A stretch of 64,000 nucleotides of DNA, taken from the NCBI GenBank assembly GCA_041737385.1, contig JBGSRU010000002.1, forward strand, positions 333,437 to 397,436, given 5' to 3'. Positions 2,322 through 63,907 of the stretch are shown in pieces (within the stretch, counting starts at the first letter, position 1; the number at the start of each line of letters is the position of its first letter). The translations under genes were made by a program, and so were the position numbers. Origin of the DNA: Candidatus Saccharimonadales bacterium. Lineage in GTDB: Bacteria; Patescibacteriota; Saccharimonadia; Saccharimonadales; SZUA-47. The notes under the pieces were generated by a model. It made no database searches, was not told where the DNA came from, and saw only the letters and a list, made by a program, of their open reading frames with translations.

Positions 2322-3533
2322 ATGAATGAGATCAAGTGCCCGCACTGCGGGAAGAATTTTAAAGTTGATGAAGCAGGGTTTGCTGATATTTTGAAGCAAG
2401 TTCGTGACGGACAGTTTGAAAGGGAACTGCACGAACGACTGGAACTGGCTGAGAAAGACAAAACAAGCGCCGTGCAGCTTGCACAAGAAAAATCGAAAAA
2501 TGATATGCAAGCTGAATTTGTGAAATTACAACAGCAACTCTCAGAACTAAAAGCGACTAAAGAAAACGAAATAATCAAACTGCAAGCTAAACTTGACGCA
2601 GGCGAGACCGAGAAAAAACTGGCTTTAAGCGAAGCGGTTAATACTCTGGAAAAAGAACGTGACGCGCTCGCAAATAAACTAGAGAGTAAAGACACCGAAA
2701 AGCAACTACTCGAATCGTCGCTCAAGGACAAATACGAAACAGAACTAAAGTCTAAAGAAGAAATGATCGCCTACTACAAAGACATGAAGGCCAAACTCAG
2801 CACCAAAATGGTTGGTGAGAGCTTAGAGCAGCACTGCGAGACAGAGTTCAATAGATTACGTGCAACGGCGTTTCAAAACGCATATTTTGAAAAGGACAAC
2901 GACGCGAGTGCTGGCACCAAAGGCGACTACATCTACCGCGAAGCAGACCATAGCGATACGGAAATAGTATCAATAATGTTTGAAATGAAAAACGAAGACG
3001 ACCAAACAGCAACCAAGAAAAAGAATGAAGATTTCCTCGCCAAACTAGACGACGATCGAAATAAGAAGGGCTGCGAATACGCCGTATTGGTGTCACTACT
3101 AGAGTCCGACAGCGAACTATACAACTCAGGGATTGTTGATATGTCGCACAAGTATCCCAAGATGTACGTCATCAGGCCACAGTTTTTCATACCAATCATT
3201 ACCTTGCTTAGAAACGCTGCGATGAACTCCATGAAATACAAATCAGAGCTTGCAGTCGTTAAAGCGCAGAACATAGACGTCACGAACTTCGAAAAACAAC
3301 TAGACGATTTCCGTGATTCATTCGGACGTAATTACCGCCTCGCATCAGAAAAGTTCAAAACGGCAATAGACAGCATCGATAAATCCATCATCCAACTACA
3401 AAAGACGAAAGAAAACCTACTAAGATCAGAAGACAACCTACGTATAGCAAACAACAAAGCGGACGAACTAAGCATCAAAAAACTCACCCGTGGCAACAAA
3501 ACAATGCAAGACAAGTTCCGCGAAACTAGTTAG
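2322..3533 (+). CDS. DUF2130-like protein (N-terminal Zn-ribbon, long coiled coil, C-terminal nuclease-like core; RmuC-like architecture)
   Basis: Starts MNEIKCPHCGKNF. Contains an E/K/L-rich coiled coil of about 150 aa. The C-terminal block GESLEQHCETEFN…KGDYIYRE…IVSIMFEMKNE…NEDFLAKLDDDRNKKGCEYAVLVS matches DUF2130 proteins as I remember them. Confidence 0.75.
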   Translation: MNEIKCPHCGKNFKVDEAGFADILKQVRDGQFERELHERLELAEKDKTSAVQLAQEKSKNDMQAEFVKLQQQLSELKATKENEIIKLQAKLDAGETEKKLALSEAVNTLEKERDALANKLESKDTEKQLLESSLKDKYETELKSKEEMIAYYKDMKAKLSTKMVGESLEQHCETEFNRLRATAFQNAYFEKDNDASAGTKGDYIYREADHSDTEIVSIMFEMKNEDDQTATKKKNEDFLAKLDDDRNKKGCEYAVLVSLLESDSELYNSGIVDMSHKYPKMYVIRPQFFIPIITLLRNAAMNSMKYKSELAVVKAQNIDVTNFEKQLDDFRDSFGRNYRLASEKFKTAIDSIDKSIIQLQKTKENLLRSEDNLRIANNKADELSIKKLTRGNKTMQDKFRETS

Positions 3534-15507: not shown

Positions 15508-16656
15508 ATGAGTAAGAAATCTATCGGGCTAGAAGCCCAAATACACAGTTTAGTTTGGGCAGAGGTTGACCTTCAAAAGTTGCGAAATAATTTTTTGCAA
15601 TTACGTAAGTTTGTAAATGATAAAACTAAGTTTTTAGCTGTTGTTAAGGCTAATGCGTATGGTCATGGAATTCAACGTATATCCAAAGAGTTAGAGAAGC
15701 TAGGCGTTGATTACCTTGGTGTTTCGAATCTCAATGAAGCTGTGACGATAAGAAGATGTGGAGTAATGACTCCAATTCTTGTGTTTGGATATGTATGCCC
15801 AGAGGATATTGGTATTGCAGTAGATAATCACATCACACTTACGGTATGTGAAGATACCATGCTTAGTGCTGTTGCTTCTTACGCAACCAAAACCGATAAA
15901 ACTGTGCCAGTCCACATACAGATTGATACTGGCCTTCGCATGTACGGCGTTGATTATAGGGAAGTTGGATCATTTATAAATAAAGTCCTGCACCATTCTA
16001 ATATCTATGTAGAAGGGGTTTATAGCCATTTTACTAACTCAGAGGACAAAGATACTATACTTTCTTTTGAGCAGCTAGATCTTTTCAATAATGCATTGAA
16101 GGAAATCATCAGTTATGGGGTTAACCCTCCCTATATTCATATTGCAAATGGAGCTGCAGTTATAAATATTCCTGAATCGCACTATACGATGGTAAGAACA
16201 GGAACGTTTTTATATGGCAACCAGACAAAAGGACAAAATCCTAAATTTAAGCCAGAGCAGATCATGACATTAAAAACAAAAGTTGTTCATAAATCACAAT
16301 TAAGTCCCAGTGACCAAGTGGGTTATGAGAAATCATTTATAACGTCAGGAATTAAAGAAATCGCATGCTTACCAATTGGTTACGGTGATGGATTTAGGCA
16401 AAAACCTCATTGGGAATATGTTTTAATCAATGGTCAGCAAGCCCCTGTTATAAATGGTGTCAGCATGGATAAAACAGCTGTTGATATATCAAAAATTAAA
16501 AATGTGGAAATTGGAAGCGAAGTGGTTTTGCTGGGAACACAAAAAGAGACAATAACAATAAATCAAGTTGCACAGATGCTGAATGCAGCTAACTATGAAA
16601 TTCTCTCCGGATTAACTAGCAGGGTTAAGAGAATTTATTTAAACGAAACATTATGA
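15508..16656 (+). CDS. alr: alanine racemase
   Basis: PLP-Lys motif AVVKANAYGHG, central HIANGAA, and C-terminal GVSMDKTAVDI block. The length of 382 aa fits. Confidence 0.9.
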   Translation: MSKKSIGLEAQIHSLVWAEVDLQKLRNNFLQLRKFVNDKTKFLAVVKANAYGHGIQRISKELEKLGVDYLGVSNLNEAVTIRRCGVMTPILVFGYVCPEDIGIAVDNHITLTVCEDTMLSAVASYATKTDKTVPVHIQIDTGLRMYGVDYREVGSFINKVLHHSNIYVEGVYSHFTNSEDKDTILSFEQLDLFNNALKEIISYGVNPPYIHIANGAAVINIPESHYTMVRTGTFLYGNQTKGQNPKFKPEQIMTLKTKVVHKSQLSPSDQVGYEKSFITSGIKEIACLPIGYGDGFRQKPHWEYVLINGQQAPVINGVSMDKTAVDISKIKNVEIGSEVVLLGTQKETITINQVAQMLNAANYEILSGLTSRVKRIYLNETL

Positions 16657-56528: not shown

Positions 56529-56603
56529 GGTCCCATCGTCTAACGGTTAGGACACTAGATTCTCAATCTAGCAATACGAGTTCGATTCTCGTTGGGATCA
56601 CCA
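56529..56603 (+). tRNA. tRNA-Glu (anticodon CUC), CCA encoded
   Basis: Hand-folded. Acceptor GGTCCCA/TGGGATC. Anticodon stem CTAGA/TCTAG with loop TTCTCAA. T-arm ACGAG-TTCGATT-CTCGT. 75 nt. Confidence 0.9.
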
Positions 56604-56665
56604 TTTTAGTTTTACAAAGGTCAGAAAATCTGCAGTTCACGTATTTTCTATTTTGTGTCTTGGGA

Positions 56666-56695
56666 CAATAGTGAAAGAGTTCGACTCTTATTAGG
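56666..56695 (+). repeat. degenerate copy of the tRNA-Glu 3' half (T-arm-like hairpin AAGAG-TTCGA-CTCTT)
   Basis: CAATA…GAGTTCGA.TCT…TT.GG is collinear with the tRNA variable loop, T-arm and acceptor. It lies 63 nt after the tRNA. Confidence 0.5.
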
Positions 56696-56737
56696 TGTAT
56701 AATGTGGTAAATGAATAAAAAACTAACTATATAGTCT

Positions 56738-57259
56738 ATGGCGAATGAAATTTTATTCGAAACAACTATCGATAAATACGATTTTGGACCGTACTTTTAT
56801 ACAGTTGTTTATGTAGGCAGCGACATTACTGACCAGCTACCTATGGATAAGTATCCACGATTAAGAGTAGAGGCTACTGTTGACGGCTACCCTTCGAAGG
56901 GCGCGTTAATGCCTGACAAGATAGGCTCAAAACAAACAGAGCACCTGCTGAATAAAAGTTACACGAAACGTGGTGAAAGAATCTGGTATTTTCAGGTACC
57001 GAAGAAAGTACTTAAAGAAATATCGAAAGAACTTGGTGATTCTGTAGAGGTCAAAATAAGTGTGGGTAATCAAGATGAGGTCGAAATTCATCCAGCAATG
57101 GAGGATTTCTTAAGAGAAAACGATACAGTTAATCAAAAATGGGAAACATTGACTCCAGGAAAAAAGCGATCTTTAGCATACCCTGTGTTGAAAGCAAAAA
57201 CAGATATAACACTCGAGAAAAGACTTATAGAACTAGAGGAAGCATTACTCAACCTATGA
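56738..57259 (+). CDS. DUF1905 + YdeI/OmpD-associated-like protein
   Basis: N-terminal DUF1905-like beta domain. The C-terminal TPGKKRSLAYPVLKAKTDITLEKRL resembles the YdeI C-terminal motif. Confidence 0.55.
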   Translation: MANEILFETTIDKYDFGPYFYTVVYVGSDITDQLPMDKYPRLRVEATVDGYPSKGALMPDKIGSKQTEHLLNKSYTKRGERIWYFQVPKKVLKEISKELGDSVEVKISVGNQDEVEIHPAMEDFLRENDTVNQKWETLTPGKKRSLAYPVLKAKTDITLEKRLIELEEALLNL

Positions 57260-57421
57260 CAATCATTCCTTGAGAGGTTTTTTATAATTGAATCTCAAAA
57301 TAACTCTACAACAAACAATACTTTTCTTACGCTATGAGGCTCAGAAGCCTCTAAGCAAAAACGTATTTGGAGATTATATTCTTAAACTAATGATGCAAGA
57401 AATATAGACAATTAAAAACTA

Positions 57422-58096
57422 TTAGTTTATTTTACAGAATCTTTTAAAGTAATTTTGAAATTCAACTGCTGCTTTGTAGTCTTCTAGTATCGAAGGTAGT
57501 AAATCGTCTGATAGTGCTAAATCAATTGGATACTCTTTTCCATAAGTCCAAGTTTTATTTAAAATATACGGGTTTTTATTCAGTGAGCCTTCAAACTCTT
57601 TGGGAACTCGTTTGTTTCGTTCGCCGTTTACTCCACCCCAATGTTTATTAAATGTTTTTGACTTAATTATTTTCATAAATTCTTCTGGGTTTTCAGCCAT
57701 TGCTGATTGTATTTTATTTTTAATTGATGTACCGGGCATATACATGCCGCCTAATACTTGGATGTTATCTACGACTCCTAGAGATATCAAGTAGCCAGGC
57801 CAGGTGAATGTATCTGATTTATTAATTCCAAAAGCAACAGCCATGTTAGTCCGGTATGGTGCTTTATCTTTGCTGAAACGAACGTCTTTATTGATCCTAA
57901 GCATCGCATTCGGTCCATCAACTTCTATGTCTTGGTCAATCTTTTTCATACCTTCAAGCAAATCTGTACTAAATTTCTTAAACGGATCTCTGACAAACAT
58001 TTCGTACCCACTTCGATGCTCGTCAAACCACTCCTTATTATTATTCAGTGTTAAATTACCAAAAAATTCTATATATTTATTTGTAAAGTATTTCAT
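57422..58096 (-). CDS. DUF2461 (TIGR02453) family protein
   Basis: FFGNLTLNNNKEWFDEHRSGYE…RINKDVRFSKDKAPYRT pattern. Confidence 0.7.
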   Translation of the reverse strand: MKYFTNKYIEFFGNLTLNNNKEWFDEHRSGYEMFVRDPFKKFSTDLLEGMKKIDQDIEVDGPNAMLRINKDVRFSKDKAPYRTNMAVAFGINKSDTFTWPGYLISLGVVDNIQVLGGMYMPGTSIKNKIQSAMAENPEEFMKIIKSKTFNKHWGGVNGERNKRVPKEFEGSLNKNPYILNKTWTYGKEYPIDLALSDDLLPSILEDYKAAVEFQNYFKRFCKIN

Positions 58097-58129
58097 GTAA
58101 TTATCATAGCTAAATAAAAATATATTTGC

Positions 58130-58150
58130 AATACGATACCGTATCGTATT
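58130..58150. promoter_or_regulatory. perfect palindrome AATACGATAC-C-GTATCGTATT, candidate TetR operator
   Basis: 10-bp arms, 12 nt upstream of the MFS start, overlapping a TATTAT -10-like hexamer. A TetR gene is the next gene downstream of the MFS gene. Confidence 0.55.
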
Positions 58151-58161
58151 ATCATTTATTT

Positions 58162-59682
58162 ATGGAAATATTTACAAGATCTAACTCAAAACAAGCAATA
58201 CAAAAAAAGCGCTGGCTCATCCACGCAGTCATGAGTAGTGGGCTTTTACTCGTAATCATGTCAGTAAGCTCATTAAATGTCGCTATACCGACTTTAGTAC
58301 GCGAACTTGGGACTACATCAACTCAACTACAATGGATATTAGACAGTTACGCATTAGTCTTTGCAGGGCTACTATTTTTAGCCGGTTCAATTGGAGATAG
58401 ATATGGCAGAAAAGGTGCATTTCTAGCTGGAATGAGCGTTTTCGGAATTGCAAGTATCTTCGCTGGTTTAGCCGATACACCTCAACAGTTAATTGCAAGC
58501 CGTGCTCTGATGGGAGCTGGTGCAGCTTTTATTATGCCGGCAACACTGTCAATTATTGCAAACGTATTCACAGACAAAAGAGAACGAGCAAAAGCGGTAG
58601 CTATGTGGGCTGGGTTTGCTGGAGCGGGCGGTGCTATTGGCCCCGTAGTTGCTGGTACTTTACTCGAGTTCTTTTGGTACGGCTCAATATTTTTCGCTGC
58701 AATACCCGTTGTTATACTCTCTATGGCTTTGACAGTGTTATTCGTGCCGACCTCGATGGATCCTGAACATGAAAAACTCGATTGGACAGGTGCACTACTT
58801 TCAGTGGCAACAATCGGTGCATTACTCTACACCATTATCGAAGCGCCCGTTTACGGATGGGCTAGTATACACACACTTATCTCAGCGATTATTAGTATCG
58901 TCTTGTTTATTCTGTTTATTTTATGGGAGCGTAGAGTCAAACATCCTATGCTGCCACTTAGTTTCTTTTCATCTAAAAGATTTTCTATCGGTAGTTTGAC
59001 TTTAGTACTCACGTTCTTTGGATTATTTGGTTTGTTTTATGTCTTGACGCAATACTTGCAGTTTGTACAGGGTTATACAGCGCTGGAAGCGGCAATACGC
59101 ACATTGGTTATTGGTGGAGCATTAGTAGCTGTTTCTAAATACGTGACAAACTTTGAAGAGAAACTTGGGACACGAAAAGTTCTTACAGGAGGACTTATTA
59201 TTGTTGGCATTGCTTTTGTAATGCTAGCGCAATTAAACGCAGACACTTCAGTCTGGTATATTTTGGCTAGCTTAACAGTACTTGGAGGCGGCATGGGACT
59301 TGCAATGCCGACTGCTACAGAAGCTATTATAGGTTCTGTGCCAACTAGAAAAGCCGGGGTTGGTTCAGCAATGAATGACACAACACGTGAATTTGGAGGT
59401 GCACTTGGCATAGCGGTATTTGGAAGCTTACTTGCTTCTAACTATAGCTCAAACATCGCAAGTTCTCTATCAAATTTACCACAAGAAGCGCTAAAAACTG
59501 CTGAATCTTCAATTGGTGGGGCTTATGCAATTGCTGAAACATTACCCGAACAGGCTAATACAATTATTATGGCTGCTAATACTTCATTTATAGATAGCTT
59601 ATCCGTCATAATGTACATTGGTGCCTCAGTCATGGTCTTGGCTGCATTAATTGCTTACAATCTTATGGTTGATAATAAATAA
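58162..59682 (+). CDS. MFS transporter, DHA2 (EmrB/QacA-like, 14-TMS) drug:H+ antiporter family
   Basis: GSIGDRYGRK (motif A-like), and many TM helices over about 500 aa. The start is set to ATG 58162. Confidence 0.8.
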   Translation: MEIFTRSNSKQAIQKKRWLIHAVMSSGLLLVIMSVSSLNVAIPTLVRELGTTSTQLQWILDSYALVFAGLLFLAGSIGDRYGRKGAFLAGMSVFGIASIFAGLADTPQQLIASRALMGAGAAFIMPATLSIIANVFTDKRERAKAVAMWAGFAGAGGAIGPVVAGTLLEFFWYGSIFFAAIPVVILSMALTVLFVPTSMDPEHEKLDWTGALLSVATIGALLYTIIEAPVYGWASIHTLISAIISIVLFILFILWERRVKHPMLPLSFFSSKRFSIGSLTLVLTFFGLFGLFYVLTQYLQFVQGYTALEAAIRTLVIGGALVAVSKYVTNFEEKLGTRKVLTGGLIIVGIAFVMLAQLNADTSVWYILASLTVLGGGMGLAMPTATEAIIGSVPTRKAGVGSAMNDTTREFGGALGIAVFGSLLASNYSSNIASSLSNLPQEALKTAESSIGGAYAIAETLPEQANTIIMAANTSFIDSLSVIMYIGASVMVLAALIAYNLMVDNK

Positions 59683-59697
59683 GTTATACTTAGTGAA

Positions 59698-60276
59698 ATG
59701 GACCAACAAGATACAAGAATAGAGCTGTCTAAAAACAAGATAACCGAAGCGGCATTGGAATGGATGCTAGCTGATGGTATGGACGCCCTAAGCATCGATG
59801 GTCTCGTTAAACGATCTGGCGTAGCAAAGACAACCATATATCGTCATTTTGAATCGATAAACGATATACTTGCAGACACCATAATTAAAACACTTCCAAA
59901 ACAAAAATCTGTTGATACTGGCTCTATTATTACCGATATGGAGTTATTACTTGGCTATACTCGTCAATCATTTGAATCTGCAACATGGGGAAAGTTACTT
60001 GCCGATATAGTAAAGAAAACAATTCAAGACGAAGAATTTAGAAAAATAAAAGGCAAACACATGGCCCAAATGATGGATCCAATGAGAGTTGCAATAAAAC
60101 GCAGTATAGATAGGGGGGAAATTAACCCAGACATTCCAACTGAGAATGTTATTGTGCATATGATTGGGCCATGCTATTACGCCCATTTTGAATGTCCAGA
60201 TCTGTATAGAACAAAAAAAGACATCGATTTGATTGTGCACAACTCTTTGTCAGAATACTTAGTAAATAACCAGTAA
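59698..60276 (+). CDS. TetR/AcrR-family transcriptional regulator
   Basis: N-terminal HTH: LSIDGLVKRSGVAKTTIYRHFES. Confidence 0.85.
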   Translation: MDQQDTRIELSKNKITEAALEWMLADGMDALSIDGLVKRSGVAKTTIYRHFESINDILADTIIKTLPKQKSVDTGSIITDMELLLGYTRQSFESATWGKLLADIVKKTIQDEEFRKIKGKHMAQMMDPMRVAIKRSIDRGEINPDIPTENVIVHMIGPCYYAHFECPDLYRTKKDIDLIVHNSLSEYLVNNQ

Positions 60277-60292
60277 TGATTTTAAAAGTAAC

Positions 60293-60871
60293 ATGATAGA
60301 GACTGATAATTTTGAAAAGGTCATAATAAGTTCTAAGCAAGAATTAAGAAACTGGCTCTTGAAAAATAATGGACAAAGCGAAAGTGTGTGGATAGTTACT
60401 TACATGAAGCATATTGGTGATTGTTACGTCTCTAAAGAACAAATACTTGACGAGGTACTATGTTTTGGCTGGGTAGATGGCATTAGACGTAAATTAAATG
60501 ATAACCAGACTATGCAGCTAATCAGTAAACGCAAAGCTCAACATTGGGCTAGGTCATACAAAAAAAGAGTAGAGAACTTGGCTACTGCAAACCTAATGCA
60601 TGAGTCAGGAATTAAAAGCGTGGAAGAAAGCAAATCAAGTGGGCTATGGAATTTTATGGATGACGTCGATGACTTGATACTTCCTAATGATCTTAAACAG
60701 GAATTACTGAAAGCCCCACCAGCCTATTCTAACTTCATGTCATTTAACAATTCTTCAGTGCGAAATATGTTACGCAGAATCAAATTGACTAAAACTGAAA
60801 AAACTAGGATAAAGTACATTCAGCAAACGGTAAACCTTGCTAAATTAAATAAAAAAGTACCACAAACCTGA
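60293..60871 (+). CDS. YdeI/OmpD-associated family protein
   Basis: ELRNWLLKN…VWIV…ILDEVLCFGWVDGIRRKLND pattern, and a C-terminal LRRIKLTKTEKTRIKYIQ. Confidence 0.6.
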   Translation: MIETDNFEKVIISSKQELRNWLLKNNGQSESVWIVTYMKHIGDCYVSKEQILDEVLCFGWVDGIRRKLNDNQTMQLISKRKAQHWARSYKKRVENLATANLMHESGIKSVEESKSSGLWNFMDDVDDLILPNDLKQELLKAPPAYSNFMSFNNSSVRNMLRRIKLTKTEKTRIKYIQQTVNLAKLNKKVPQT

Positions 60872-60905
60872 CAGCCATAGCAACTAATTAATTTTAAACT
60901 TTTAC

Positions 60906-61130
60906 CTATAAACAATGTAATTCATCTTTACACATTATTTCTTTATAGATACTATGATCTAATATATTATGTGAACCTTCCCACACACTACTTTTGTAAA
61001 TTATTGCTAGTTTTCTATATCTTAAGCCATTAAATGTCATTACTGTAATTCCTGTATGCTCAAGAATCTTAACTACTATCATCGCTTGCTCCCTGAGACT
61101 TCCATCATGATGATTTGGATTTATAGTCAA
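60906..61130 (-). CDS. small hypothetical ORF (doubtful)
   Basis: 74 aa with a non-ATG start. No convincing motif. Confidence 0.25.
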   Translation of the reverse strand: MTINPNHHDGSLREQAMIVVKILEHTGITVMTFNGLRYRKLAIIYKSSVWEGSHNILDHSIYKEIMCKDELHCL

Positions 61131-61511
61131 TACTTTAACACTTAGACCTCTCTTTATTTTTTACGAGCACATGTTAGTGAACCTGGTGGCTCAGAGCCTA
61201 GTTATGTATGAGCTCACAATAATAACTTCGCGTTTTGCTTTCTTTATATCGGTACTGAAAGCTTTAAACTAGGAGTATTCATCAAAAAGCTCTGACTAGA
61301 CAGGGAAGTGATCTCTTTTTCTAAACATCTTTAAATTCCTCGAATTTCTCAAGACGTTTATCAAGCTTAATTAAATCATCGTAAAGCGAGTTCCACCCAT
61401 TTGCCGGCAGGCTCACCAAATAAAGTAGGTCACAAAAGTGGCCTTTTTTATTTGATGTCCTGACGAGCGATCGAGCTAAAAGAGTTCGCTAATCCCCCGA
61501 ATCTTTGATTC

Positions 61512-61548
61512 AGACGGGCGGATTCTTCCTATCTAGTTGGGATCACCA
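61512..61548 (+). repeat. left copy of the ~46-nt direct repeat (AGACGGGCGGATTCTTCCTAT…GGATCACCA)
   Basis: 21-nt exact core shared with 63871-63891. Both copies end in GGATCACCA. Confidence 0.75.
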
Positions 61549-61555
61549 GTGTTAG

Positions 61556-61580
61556 AGCCTCACGTTTATGTGGGGCTTTT
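61556..61580 (+). terminator. terminator-like hairpin after repeat unit 1
   Basis: AGCCTCA, loop, TGGGGCT (one G-U pair), then TTT. Confidence 0.45.
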
Positions 61581-61680
61581 ACACTTGTGGTTTCACTTGT
61601 GAAACCGAACTCGAGAGTTCGTTCAGCACCCAATACTCAAGCTGCTGGTACTCTTCTCGTTGGGATCACCAACTTAAGCA

Positions 61681-61702
61681 CTCACCCCCGTGGTGAGTTT
61701 TT
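61681..61702 (+). terminator. rho-independent terminator after repeat unit 2
   Basis: CTCACC, loop CCCGT, GGTGAG, TTTTT. Confidence 0.7.
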
Positions 61703-61862
61703 AAATTCACAGCCTCATCGAGGTCGAGCCAGAAGAGTTCGTTATTTATCAGTCGCTACGCTACAGACGTGCAACATTCATTTTAATTTGAAAAATATCT
61801 CTACCTGTACACCGAATTACGCTATATACATGGAGGAATTAAACAATTATGATTGGGGTTGA

Positions 61863-62363
61863 ATGAATGAAAATGATTTCTATAAAAAACTCTTAAAAAA
61901 CTTACACCGATTCTTTATGTCAAAAACTTTTGATATATCATTAAGTGAAGATTTAACGAGCGAAGTATTACTAACTGTTTATGAGCAATTCAAGATACAG
62001 CAAGGAAATTCGAATATCAAGGATAGAGAGAAGTATGTATATGGTATCGCAAAAAATGTTTGGCTTAGGTACCTTAGGTCAAAGTACTCAAACTTAGTTG
62101 ATTATGTTGAGAACGTCGAAGATTTTGAAAAATATGTCCTAAATTCAGTCGAAGAATATGAAAAGATGTCAATAATCCATAGGGCAGTCCCTTTTATTGA
62201 ACAACTACCTGAAAAGCAAAAACAGATATTACTGTTAAGGTTCAGGGATGGAATGAGTCTCAAAGAAATATGCAAAGCGACTGGTTCAAATATGAACTAT
62301 GTTAAAACTACCCAGAAAAGAGGAATCGCCTCATTGAAGAATAATATCCAAGGAGATAAATGA
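61863..62363 (+). CDS. sigma-70 family (ECF-like) RNA polymerase sigma factor
   Basis: Region 2-like YGIAKNVWLRYLR. Region 4 HTH: LPEKQKQILLLRFRDGMSLKEICKATGSNMNYVKTTQKRGIASLK. Confidence 0.8.
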   Translation: MNENDFYKKLLKNLHRFFMSKTFDISLSEDLTSEVLLTVYEQFKIQQGNSNIKDREKYVYGIAKNVWLRYLRSKYSNLVDYVENVEDFEKYVLNSVEEYEKMSIIHRAVPFIEQLPEKQKQILLLRFRDGMSLKEICKATGSNMNYVKTTQKRGIASLKNNIQGDK

Positions 62364-63745
62364 TGGAAAACAATGATTTAGAAAAATTATTTTCAGGAGA
62401 ACAACTTGAACCAAGTAAAAAATTCGAAAAACAATTACTCAATAGGCTCAGTAAAGATGCTAAAAATCCAAAGATATGGTTTTTTTATAAGCTGAGCAGC
62501 GTATTAGTTATCACACTGATGCTCATAGGCGTAGCTCTTTATCAACCAAACTCTGATAATTTGAGCAATACAGTTCTTCTTAAAGAGCTATACCAAAAGG
62601 CGTTGGCGGATGAACTACCAGAGTCAAATGATGTAAACTTCTGGAAAATAATCGGAGGTACAACTTATGGAGCACAAGCACCTCTTTGCACAAATACTGA
62701 ATCGGGTGTTTCCTATCAGAAGCTTTCATTGCTGTATAAAAACAATCAAGAGTCTGCGTATTTTAATACCAGCACAGAGCAATATACACAACCGTATATG
62801 AATTATAGCGATGATTCTGATATTCCCGCCTACGATGATTCCGTATTCACCGGTGCAAATTCATACGTTGTTCAACAATATCTAGCAAATACTTATCTTA
62901 CAAACGAAAACGGCAATAAACTAACTGATAACGCAACAACAGAAGTTAAAACCGAAGGATCTTACCTCGTGTATGCCAAACTAGAAACACCAAGTTCGGA
63001 TGTAAAGAACTTCGTAGACGGATGTAATAATCTACAGATAAAAATTGAGATTGATGCAGAGACAGGATTATACGAGTCTATCTACATTTACAATGTTTCA
63101 AACAATAGTAAGTTAGATGAAGCAAACCTTAGTTTTTCGCTCTTTCAGCAGATTGAAACTGCTAGTTTCGCGAGCTTTTCTGATGTTGATGAAGAATTTA
63201 TCTCTGAGGGATTTGATCTTGAAACCGCACGATCAAATACCTTGAATAATTCCTACTCCCGAATAGTAAACAAAGAAGCAGGTTTCGAATTTTGGTATGA
63301 CAAACCACTGCTTGGCAAGTCAGAATTAAAATTAAGTCGTGATAATAACGGAAATGTGACGTCGTATCAATATGTCTTTTTGAAACATCCAGAAGTAACC
63401 TACATTATATACACATCATTCGCTAGAGACGTCATAAATTTGGAAGAGAAAATAGTTTTAGATAATCTAGAAGTTGTTACTAGAAACACTGGTGAGTTTA
63501 AGTTGCCCGGGTATGGAGAAGTAACGAGTACTTATTTGACAGCAAAAAATGACACTACAAAATACCAACTATCGATAACTGGCTCGACTGATATCATTGC
63601 GGTATATATTGAGGCTCCCCTTGAGCTGGGAGTATCAACAAAAGTAGATAAAAATGCCCCAGATTTTCCATATATAGAGGACAAAATATTGTCTATGATC
63701 GTCAGTGTATTTCCTCCTAATACAGACCCACCGAGTGGGCTATAA
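62360..63745 (+). CDS. single-pass membrane protein coupled to the sigma factor (putative anti-sigma/partner)
   Basis: ATGA overlap with the sigma gene. Short cytoplasmic N-terminus, a TM (YKLSSVLVITLMLIGVALY), and a large extracytoplasmic domain. Confidence 0.5.
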   Translation: MMENNDLEKLFSGEQLEPSKKFEKQLLNRLSKDAKNPKIWFFYKLSSVLVITLMLIGVALYQPNSDNLSNTVLLKELYQKALADELPESNDVNFWKIIGGTTYGAQAPLCTNTESGVSYQKLSLLYKNNQESAYFNTSTEQYTQPYMNYSDDSDIPAYDDSVFTGANSYVVQQYLANTYLTNENGNKLTDNATTEVKTEGSYLVYAKLETPSSDVKNFVDGCNNLQIKIEIDAETGLYESIYIYNVSNNSKLDEANLSFSLFQQIETASFASFSDVDEEFISEGFDLETARSNTLNNSYSRIVNKEAGFEFWYDKPLLGKSELKLSRDNNGNVTSYQYVFLKHPEVTYIIYTSFARDVINLEEKIVLDNLEVVTRNTGEFKLPGYGEVTSTYLTAKNDTTKYQLSITGSTDIIAVYIEAPLELGVSTKVDKNAPDFPYIEDKILSMIVSVFPPNTDPPSGL

Positions 63746-63870
63746 AATATCACAATCTGTAAGAAACTTAAGCCGATCAATATTGCATTATGTGTAGATA
63801 CAGACAAAAAGCATGATCTCTAGTCAAACAGAACCCTAAAGAGCCTGCTAAGCCTGCAAACTTTAGCTTA

Positions 63871-63907
63871 AGACGGGCGGATTCTTCCTATTCGCTCAGG
63901 ATCACCA
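63871..63907 (+). repeat. right copy of the ~46-nt direct repeat
   Basis: AGACGGGCGGATTCTTCCTAT, then TCGCTCAGGATCACCA. Confidence 0.75.

Follow-up and report, generated by a model that had tools for sequence, protein, structure and literature searches.

Islands of the Islander/TIGER type target transfer RNA (tRNA) genes: the tRNA gene is regenerated at one end of the island, a tRNA fragment is displaced to the opposite end, and such islands can stand in tandem; PMC4383910 describes their usual enzyme as a tyrosine integrase. Fragments of tRNA genes have been reviewed (PMC9897764). The sites of characterised large serine recombinases (LSRs) are under 50 bp long, have a 2-bp crossover and share little identity, according to PMC1470463. 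Here we describe a group of tRNA-like units in a 64,000-nucleotide stretch of contig JBGSRU010000002.1 from a Candidatus Saccharimonadales bacterium (the window; coordinates without a contig name refer to it, contigs of relatives are labelled L023 and so on). An earlier note on this DNA had described the units as a tandem array built from T-arm and acceptor fragments of tRNA-Glu, and had offered two readings of them, as stacked attachment-site (att) scars of serial integrations or as tRNA-derived small RNAs ending in a CCA-bearing mimic. The closest known kind of structure is the tRNA-targeting genomic island with a displaced tRNA fragment, as set out in PMC9897764 and PMC4383910. The units are probably stacked right-end attachment-site modules (attR-type scars), produced by serial insertion of LSR-family elements at the 3' end of a tRNA-Glu(CTC) gene.

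The locus resembles tRNA islands in having an intact tRNA at one end and direct-repeat copies of the tRNA 3' end at the other end or ends, an atypical composition, accessory cargo and, in relatives, a recombinase gene beside the tRNA. The presence of several stacked fragments points to serial integration, as in tRNA islands. It differs from them in that the recombinase is an LSR and not the tyrosine integrase usual in such islands, in that the arm is a T-arm mimic with a conserved structured insert, and in that fragments have terminators of their own and many modules are free of cargo. Recombination between attP and attB by LSRs of the phiC31/Bxb1 type is a second point of comparison. The Resolvase, Recombinase and Zn_ribbon_recom domains are shared with these enzymes, as is the position of the gene at the element edge beside the attachment site. 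Unlike the characterised sites of those enzymes, the ends here share 16-19 nt and the target is a tRNA 3' end, and the LSR frame runs antisense through the terminator and the tRNA to the anticodon loop.

The window contains two tRNA genes, one of which is an intact tRNA-Glu(CTC) at 56529-56603 (+), found by ARAGORN and scoring 64.3 bits with the Rfam tRNA model. This gene would represent the attL side and the source of the 3'-end block. Its last 13 nt, GTTGGGATCACCA, occur exactly three times in the window, in the gene itself (56591-56603) and at 61536-61548 and 61659-61671. The gene and its exact 3'-end copies, which are 13 and 18 nt long, are in direct orientation and 5 kb apart. The copies end units 1 and 2, which had been correctly recognised as ending in the tRNA 3' strand plus CCA.

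Unit 1 (61471-61548, +) has GTTCG at 61484-61488, followed by a structured insert to 61531 and the tRNA-Glu 3' block. The insert core is CTAATCCCCCG-GAATC TTT GATTC-AGACGGGCGGATT (61489-61524), with a tail, CTTCCTA, that ends at 61531. The block, TCTAGTTGGGATCACCA at 61532-61548, is near-exact against tRNA-Glu over 17 nt and exact over 13 nt (61536-61548), and its alignment score of 29 compares with a maximum of 24 in 20 shuffles. A terminator follows at 61556-61580 (+; AGCCTCAC GTTTAT GTGGGGCT TTTT), and sequence comparison places the same type behind tRNA-Met in L023 and behind a CCA end in L045. A hairpin, S1, and a palindrome at 61589-61620 (+; GGTTTCAC TTG TGAAACC, then GAACTC GA GAGTTC) make up the left part of unit 2. 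This layout is repeated in L054 and L032 (CTTTCAC GCTG TGAAAG TC GAACTC TA GAGTTCG), and blastn aligns window 61537-61621 with L054 at 78% identity over 87 nt. Unit 2 (61604-61671, +) has GTTCG at 61617-61621, a 32-nt insert at 61622-61653 and the 18-nt block TTCTCGTTGGGATCACCA at 61654-61671, which is identical to tRNA-Glu throughout and scores 36, above all shuffles. The unit reads CGAGAGTTCG + 32 nt + TTCTCGTTGGGATCACCA and is a tRNA 3' portion opened in the T-loop by an insertion of the length that the earlier note had given. Its insert differs in type from that of unit 1 and closes with CAAGCTGCTGGTACTCT, a sequence similar to the last part of the 'module A' insert (~100 nt) in L035 and L048. 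The terminator of unit 2 lies at 61680-61703 (+; ACTCACC CCCGT GGTGAGT TTTT; hairpin 61680-61698). Taken with their hairpins, units 1 and 2 fold with z = -4.8 and -2.6, and a T run follows each hairpin, which bears out the description of both as terminator-like; a terminator scan picks up the hairpin of unit 2 and a further one at 61427-61444.

The three units first proposed are all present, but the array is larger and includes units 0 and 4. Unit 0 (61386-61418, +) is an insert-less arm resembling a tRNA 3' end, GCGAGTTCCACCC...GGCTCACCA, and contains GAGTTCCACCC. It aligns with the right-end arms of LSR elements (GTTCCAWTT..GGYTCACCA plus a terminator, in L048, L053, L041, L046 and L065), and a homologous arm stands before the terminal module of the complete L066 island. 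The hairpin picked up at 61427-61444 is its terminator (61427-61450, +; AGGTCAC AAAA GTGGCCT then a T run), also found as an inverted repeat, and the pairing is lengthened by flanking A and T tracts (61414-61457). Unit 3 (61724-61790, +; TCGAGCC AGAAGAGTTCG ... CAGACGTGCAACATTC), which was read from the sequence only, has neither 3' block nor terminator; the proposal that every unit has its own terminator stands for units 1 and 2, and for unit 0, but not for unit 3. With one gap in the comparison, its CAGACGTGCAACATTC and the CAGACGGGCGGATTC of unit 1 agree at 12 of 15 positions, a weak resemblance by which unit 3 is probably a degenerate insert-type unit. Unit 4 (63838-63907, +) is a diverged insert-type unit that ends in CTCAGGATCACCA / GGATCACCA. 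Over 70 nt it shows 74% identity with unit 1, and the two have in common an exact 21-mer, AGACGGGCGGATTCTTCCTAT (63871-63891 in unit 4), for which the chance expectation is 0; its 3' end, CTCGCTCAGGATCACCA, matches the 3' end of the L053 module.

The motif AGAGTTCG is found at 61481, 61614 and 61734, the three core starts given before, and also at 56676 (6 window matches, 1.96 expected). At the sequence level the units are not a tandem array: Tandem Repeats Finder returns 0 rows at a minimum score of 30, and pairwise identity among units 1-3 is barely over that of shuffles (z ~2.5, 2.6 and -0.4). The units share with tRNA (Rfam RF00005) and tRNA-like RNAs such as transfer-messenger RNA the T-loop 5' part GTTCG, the 3' strands of T-stem and acceptor, and CCA, but the acceptor 5' strand, D arm and anticodon arm are lacking. 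ARAGORN finds just the two true tRNAs in the window and no cloverleaf at the units, and Rfam gives no match there at the gathering score or at E up to 10, in agreement with the earlier failure to fold any unit into a cloverleaf. By the features tested, the feature is not a tRNA, a tandem repeat or an integron. Searches of phage and plasmid collections with blastn gave no match, early scans of viral and genome contigs with GACGGGCGGATTC-type patterns gave only chance matches in GC-rich coding DNA, and no relative was found in viral contigs with the refined module pattern or with the LSR protein.

A remnant of the C-terminal coding end of an LSR is present at 56566-56679 (-), where it overlaps the 3' half of tRNA-Glu and extends 76 nt past it. 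The match was obtained by tblastn with the LSR of L053 (residues 517-547, 45% identity over 38 aa, E = 0.005); elsewhere in the window there is no LSR similarity and no recombinase gene. The window tRNA-Glu is identical to that of L053, and the two sequences part immediately after the tRNA CCA. In L053 an intact 547-aa LSR with Resolvase, Recombinase and Zn-ribbon (Zn_ribbon_recom) domains is encoded on the opposite strand and overlaps the 3' half of tRNA-Glu, its frame running antisense through the terminator and the tRNA 3' half to a stop in the anticodon loop. The same overlap with tRNA-Glu is found in L025, and L043 has an overlap at tRNA-Val. Homologues of the LSR are numerous; all five further loci fetched (64-92% identity) sit on tRNA-Glu(CTC), and an intact LSR lies over tRNA-Glu(CTC) in seven contigs (L053, L025, L066, L068, L069, L070 and L072). 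Antisense frames through a tRNA terminator and 3' half lie at L053 58-1701, L025 6150-7022 and L043 654-2369, and the last 25-35 LSR codons are dictated by the tRNA and terminator; the L053 stop is TGA, the antisense of TCA in the anticodon loop.

The complete island of L066 consists of the tRNA, the LSR gene, ~9 kb of defence and toxin-antitoxin cargo, an arm ending in GTCGTTAGGTTCACCA, a terminator, a small hairpin, an insert and a 19-nt block that is identical to its tRNA from A58 to CCA. The order of unit 0, terminator, unit 1 and block in the window is also that of L066, L053 and L032, and in the window it ends with a terminator of the type that follows tRNAs in relatives. The idea of stacked att scars has gained support from this shared order at the ends of the relatives' islands and from the tRNA-Glu 5 kb upstream with its 18-nt repeat, the adjacent LSR remnant and the relatives' LSRs at the same tRNA. 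The arm TTAGGTTCACCA is unchanged among hosts with different tRNA alleles and therefore travels with the element; the block behind the module is host-specific. In L048 the CCA end of a module is directly followed by the terminator and LSR 3' end seen behind the tRNA in L025 (94% amino-acid identity), and L044 and L062 contain the module of L048 without the terminator and LSR sequence. This comparison suggests that the element boundary lies at or inside the block and that elements insert at a module block as well as at a tRNA, hence the stacks. Arrays of 2-3 modules with mixed inserts, each with CCA and a terminator, are present in L035, L048 and L032. Identity blocks of 16-19 nt and palindromic flanks are seen at the candidate sites.

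A motif, TTACAGATA(G/C)A..GATTGGT, occurs ~8-12 nt past the CCA in L023, L038, L059, L064 and L066 (reverse-complement 16456-16520), in unrelated hosts and next to blocks of both the tRNA-Met and the tRNA-Glu type. The recombinase-side arm contains its reverse complement, TATCTGTAA, ~40 nt after the tRNA, and the motif may be a half-site. The cargo of L066 (2965-8735) includes genes for ThsB-TIR, NUDIX, deaminase, RadC, Fic, ParE and PIN proteins.

A homologue of a 461-aa protein encoded between units 3 and 4 gave entry to the relatives through L023. This contig contains tRNA-Met, a terminator homologous to that of unit 1 and then a unit of tRNA-Met T-arm and acceptor pieces, which holds the same insert type as unit 1 with compensatory changes. 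The metagenome search that had been advised proved fruitful: a pattern made from these two copies, and requiring GTTCG, matched 41 metagenome contigs, ~35 of which are genuine members of the unit 1 module family. In the layout that recurs, the 5' part consists of a tRNA or tRNA-like 3' end (..ACCA), a terminator, a small hairpin and a diverged antisense copy of a tRNA 3' half. In the middle are a short hairpin, variable-loop and T-stem 5' sequence up to GTTCG, and the insert. ATT, the T-stem 3' strand and acceptor 3' strand of the neighbouring tRNA, CCA and a further terminator form the 3' part. The tRNAs beside modules are Glu (TTC or CTC), Met and Phe, with Asn at one locus (L027), and the block always agrees with the 3' end of the adjoining tRNA (Glu, Met, Phe). 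Within the Glu set the tRNA-like module parts track the T-stem allele, which is CTCGT, CTCCT or CTCCG. Complementarity between the two strands of the T-stem has not been maintained in most modules.

The hairpin insert (~43-47 nt) breaks the T-loop exactly between positions 57 and 58. Of its 20 distinct versions, 17 fold identically, into an outer stem AAUYC-CCC / GGG-C-GRAUU with a conserved bulged C and an AAA bulge and an inner stem of 5-7 bp; the inner stem has at least 12 different sequences, and this variation is visible in the raw sequences. The spacing between the conserved arms is 13 to 21 nt. A covariance model, R1, was built on six copies, two of them padded by one base for register, and finds 40 full copies in the loci of relatives in addition to unit 1 (61484-61539, 47.2 bits, E = 2e-7 to 7e-9). 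Unit 1 fits the R1 consensus of GTTCG, CTAATYCCCCG, an inner hairpin, ACGGGCGRATT and the neighbouring tRNA 3' end. Units 2 and 4 score 8.3 and 6.2 bits, neither of which is significant, and unit 3 is not detected; the covariation-based structure check suggested before thus yields a covarying hairpin in the insert of unit 1, but units 2, 3 and 4 are not R1 matches. Paired cells amount to 97.1% and 10 of the 17 pairs show double changes, which none of 500 shuffles equals, in an alignment that is fitted to the model and so favours structure; when partner columns are slid as a control, pairing falls to 29-44%. The tRNA-sense strand has five G.U pairs and one A.C pair, an excess that hints, in small numbers, at a folded sense strand. 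A search of well-preserved modules against Rfam found no family, and a literature search found nothing specific to the T-loop-insert module.

Single genes are flanked by pairs of modules 0.87-1.27 kb apart in L031, L040 and L041. L062 consists of one module and ~1.45 kb with one open reading frame (ORF), has a 72-nt terminal direct repeat (1-72, 1624-1695) and is either circular or a tandem duplication; its sequence recurs in L044 behind tRNA-Glu(TTC).

The complete 5' part of a tRNA-Glu runs at GTTCG into the hairpin insert, with a degenerate 3' end behind it, in L026 (2934-3160) and L025 (5964-6190); the 5' part in L026 is identical to that of the window's intact tRNA-Glu. An intact tRNA-Glu of another allele lies 45 nt after the fused copy, behind a TATAAT box, and is followed by a terminator and recombinase sequence, which is an intact gene in L025 and a 38-aa remnant in L026. 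It seems that the resident tRNA lost its function and that the element-borne copy took its place. Other inserts at the same T-loop position are ~100 nt long (L035 7440-7640, L048 1746-1900) or form a 16-nt hairpin (arm of L065). An insert type ending in ATATGCGCGAAGGCGCTAT is common to L032 (reverse-complement 3079-3155) and L066, and at L048 1640-1694 the outer stem is altered to ATTGC-CCG / CGG-C-GCAAT.

Several other roles for parts of the module were considered and rejected. GGATTATAC is TATAAT on the other strand, as for an antisense promoter; it is absent from a second module subtype and from the window units and has no fitting -35. A guide RNA, with the hairpin as scaffold and the tRNA-matching part as 'spacer', was dismissed because no nuclease or transposase co-occurs with modules. 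The possibility that crossover took place in the T-loop and that the insert is an element in collapsed form does not suit L025 and L026, in which the hairpin lies wholly on one side of the junction.

The island cargo behind tRNA-Glu (56604-61385; ORFs and Pfam) comprises DUF1905/OmdA, DUF2461, MFS transporter, TetR and OmdA genes, followed by non-coding debris. GC content changes from ~42-46% upstream to 34-40% from tRNA-Glu onward and remains low through the window end. The ~500 nt between the last island gene and unit 0 (60872-61385) contain no convincing ORF, only a 74-aa frame without a Pfam match, and are probably decayed element sequence. At 56670-56700, 73 nt past tRNA-Glu, there is an insert-less T-arm-like hairpin, AAGAG TTCGA CTCTT, followed by ATTAGGTG; the ATTAGGT part resembles the element-borne arm ATTAGGTTCACCA of L053, L032 and L066. 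The two-gene cargo between units 3 and 4 (61863-63745, +) encodes an ECF-type sigma factor (61863-62363) and the 461-aa protein (62360-63745), and the two genes overlap by 4 nt. The 461-aa protein matches no family in Pfam. In exact look-ups neither the window sigma factor nor the 461-aa protein sequence is on record, and only three homologues of the ~460-aa protein were found among 5.8 billion proteins. The gene pair is also present at L023 2073-3952, beside tRNA-Met and a module, and at L024 1228-3125; it adjoins tRNA-linked modules in 2 of 3 loci.

We propose that the units derive from an element family driven by an LSR whose gene is convergent to, and overlaps, the tRNA. At every insertion the tRNA would be regenerated and a new terminator supplied behind it, and the previous terminator would move to the far end of the element together with a duplicate 3' end of the tRNA, made up of the 3' strands of T-stem and acceptor plus CCA. 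On the element side, the arm next to this duplicate would be a mimic of the tRNA T-arm (..GTTCG) broken between T-loop positions 57 and 58 by an insert, which would be the conserved two-tier ~43-nt hairpin in unit 1, the other 32-nt insert in unit 2 and missing in unit 0. Later loss of cargo, the recombinase gene included, may have shrunk older elements to ~120-130 nt each, giving the look of an array. The stretch from 56604 to at least 63907 would then be a composite island built by repeated insertion at tRNA-Glu. Its youngest layer may run from the tRNA to unit 0 or unit 1, with the recombinase gene lost; units 2 and 3 would be older collapsed layers, and the sigma-factor pair with unit 4 an older layer that has retained its cargo. 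The order of events, the action of the LSR on these sites and any exact point of crossover are parts that we infer.

A number of observations sit uneasily with insertion by an LSR. The remnant in the window is short, its E value is 0.005 and it is the sole recombinase trace there. LSR sequence accompanies only ~5 of ~35 module-bearing contigs, which are however short, and ten large ORFs adjoining other modules are ordinary genes. For serine recombinases, which normally make do with sites shorter than 50 bp and a 2-bp crossover, an identity block of 16-19 nt and a module of ~170 nt are unusual. The full tRNA-Glu 5' part fused to the insert in L025 and L026 is not yielded by a simple attL/attR scheme. 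Across at least 20 samples and beside four types of tRNA, the core of the insert is near-invariant and the inner stem shows covariation, unlike a decaying scar; the hairpin is too conserved, and too shaped by compensatory change, for neutral debris. Our best guess is that the hairpin is the part that distinguishes attP/attR from attB, or an architectural or protein-binding site there, and not a free-standing RNA.

The insert of unit 1 is conserved and covarying at dozens of loci beside four tRNA types, and a role as a single-stranded nucleic acid is therefore possible. In its broad form, which makes the module a cis-acting RNA or a structured recombination site of a new, single-strand-folded kind, and has LSR elements and recombinase-less mini-cassettes stack behind the tRNA genes of uncultivated bacteria in an integron-like manner, we regard this as unlikely. 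A narrower version, to which we give less credence, holds that modules are structured recombination sites of a tRNA-anchored cassette system, with a recombinase that would recognise the folded hairpin and not the duplex and one module per cassette of 1-2 genes; the sigma-factor pair between units 3 and 4 would be one such cassette. Integron attC sites likewise keep a hairpin structure while the inner sequence varies, and have conserved boxes and unpaired bases at the stem base, here the bulged C and the AAA bulge of the outer stem. The preserved fold (17/20 inserts, at least 12 inner stems, 97.1% paired, 10/17 pairs compensated), the module pairs around single genes and the single module of L062, circular or tandem, all agree with such a system, and an arm spacing that varies from 13 to 21 nt is easier to reconcile with a hairpin than with a rigid protein dimer on duplex DNA. 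Unlike attC sites, however, the module is fused to a tRNA 3'-end copy and its arrays are of 1-4 units, most modules being single. No cassette was seen to recur at different positions in arrays, there is little evidence of strand bias (5 G.U, 1 A.C) and no recombinase turned up other than the serine type, whose substrate is duplex DNA; neither an IntI-type tyrosine integrase nor attI was seen among the ORFs examined in the window or loci, in a survey that was not exhaustive.

Transcription of the units or of the hairpin module, to give a CCA-ended mimic of a tRNA 3' half or an element that processes or insulates read-through transcripts, is about as doubtful as the cassette system. The covariation and the G.U excess on the tRNA-sense strand are what an RNA would show, T-loop motifs in other RNAs tolerate extra nucleotides between positions 57 and 58, and a same-strand intrinsic terminator lies behind the units other than unit 3. 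But no promoter-like site was found upstream of any window unit, and each stands directly behind a terminator; the acceptor 3' strand has no pairing partner and T-stem 5' complementarity is lost in most modules. Without their hairpins the units fold no better than shuffled sequence on either strand and match nothing in Rfam, and the structure is lost in units 2, 3 and 4. The small-RNA interpretation of the earlier note is not supported by these results. The CCA ends are copies of the tRNA 3' end, the terminators are displaced or supplied by elements, and neither is a sign of RNA genes. We think it very unlikely that the ~47-nt hairpin is a small palindromic mobile element, similar to a miniature inverted-repeat transposable element or a repetitive extragenic palindrome, that targets GTTCG^A of the T-loop in redundant tRNA copies or fragments. 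The constant insertion point would be explained, as would the unrelated inserts found there (unit 2, 32 nt; L035 and L048, ~100 nt; L065, 16 nt) and the interruption of an otherwise complete tRNA-Glu in L025 and L026, with a 5' part identical to the window's intact tRNA; against this, neither target-site duplication nor transposase is seen, inner stems differ by lineage and are not copies of one master element, and in the window and fetched loci the core occurs only in tRNA-fragment context, a finding biased by the pattern's requirement for GTTCG.

With serial LSR insertion as the favoured explanation, the window feature as such is ordinary, tRNA genes being integration hot spots and displaced tRNA fragments a known annotation nuisance. 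An LSR consistently on tRNA-Glu(CTC) is an uncommon pairing, and LSRs with defined natural targets are wanted as genome-engineering tools. The novel part is a widespread and so far undescribed module with a conserved hairpin at the T-loop position. At least 20 metagenome samples contain the covarying arm hairpin, which accompanies four tRNA types and has no Rfam entry, and we know of no obvious precedent for a structured element within the attachment site of a serine recombinase. A minority possibility is that the module marks a structured recombination site or a cis-acting RNA. Modules account for runs of pseudo-tRNA 3' ends and terminators that could otherwise be mistaken for small-RNA genes. 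On the integron-like reading, the element in L025 and L026, where the insert interrupts the resident tRNA-Glu, would hold the only intact copy, which would make the element hard to lose. The arm hairpin could also bear on the control of directionality or mobilisation in this family of elements.

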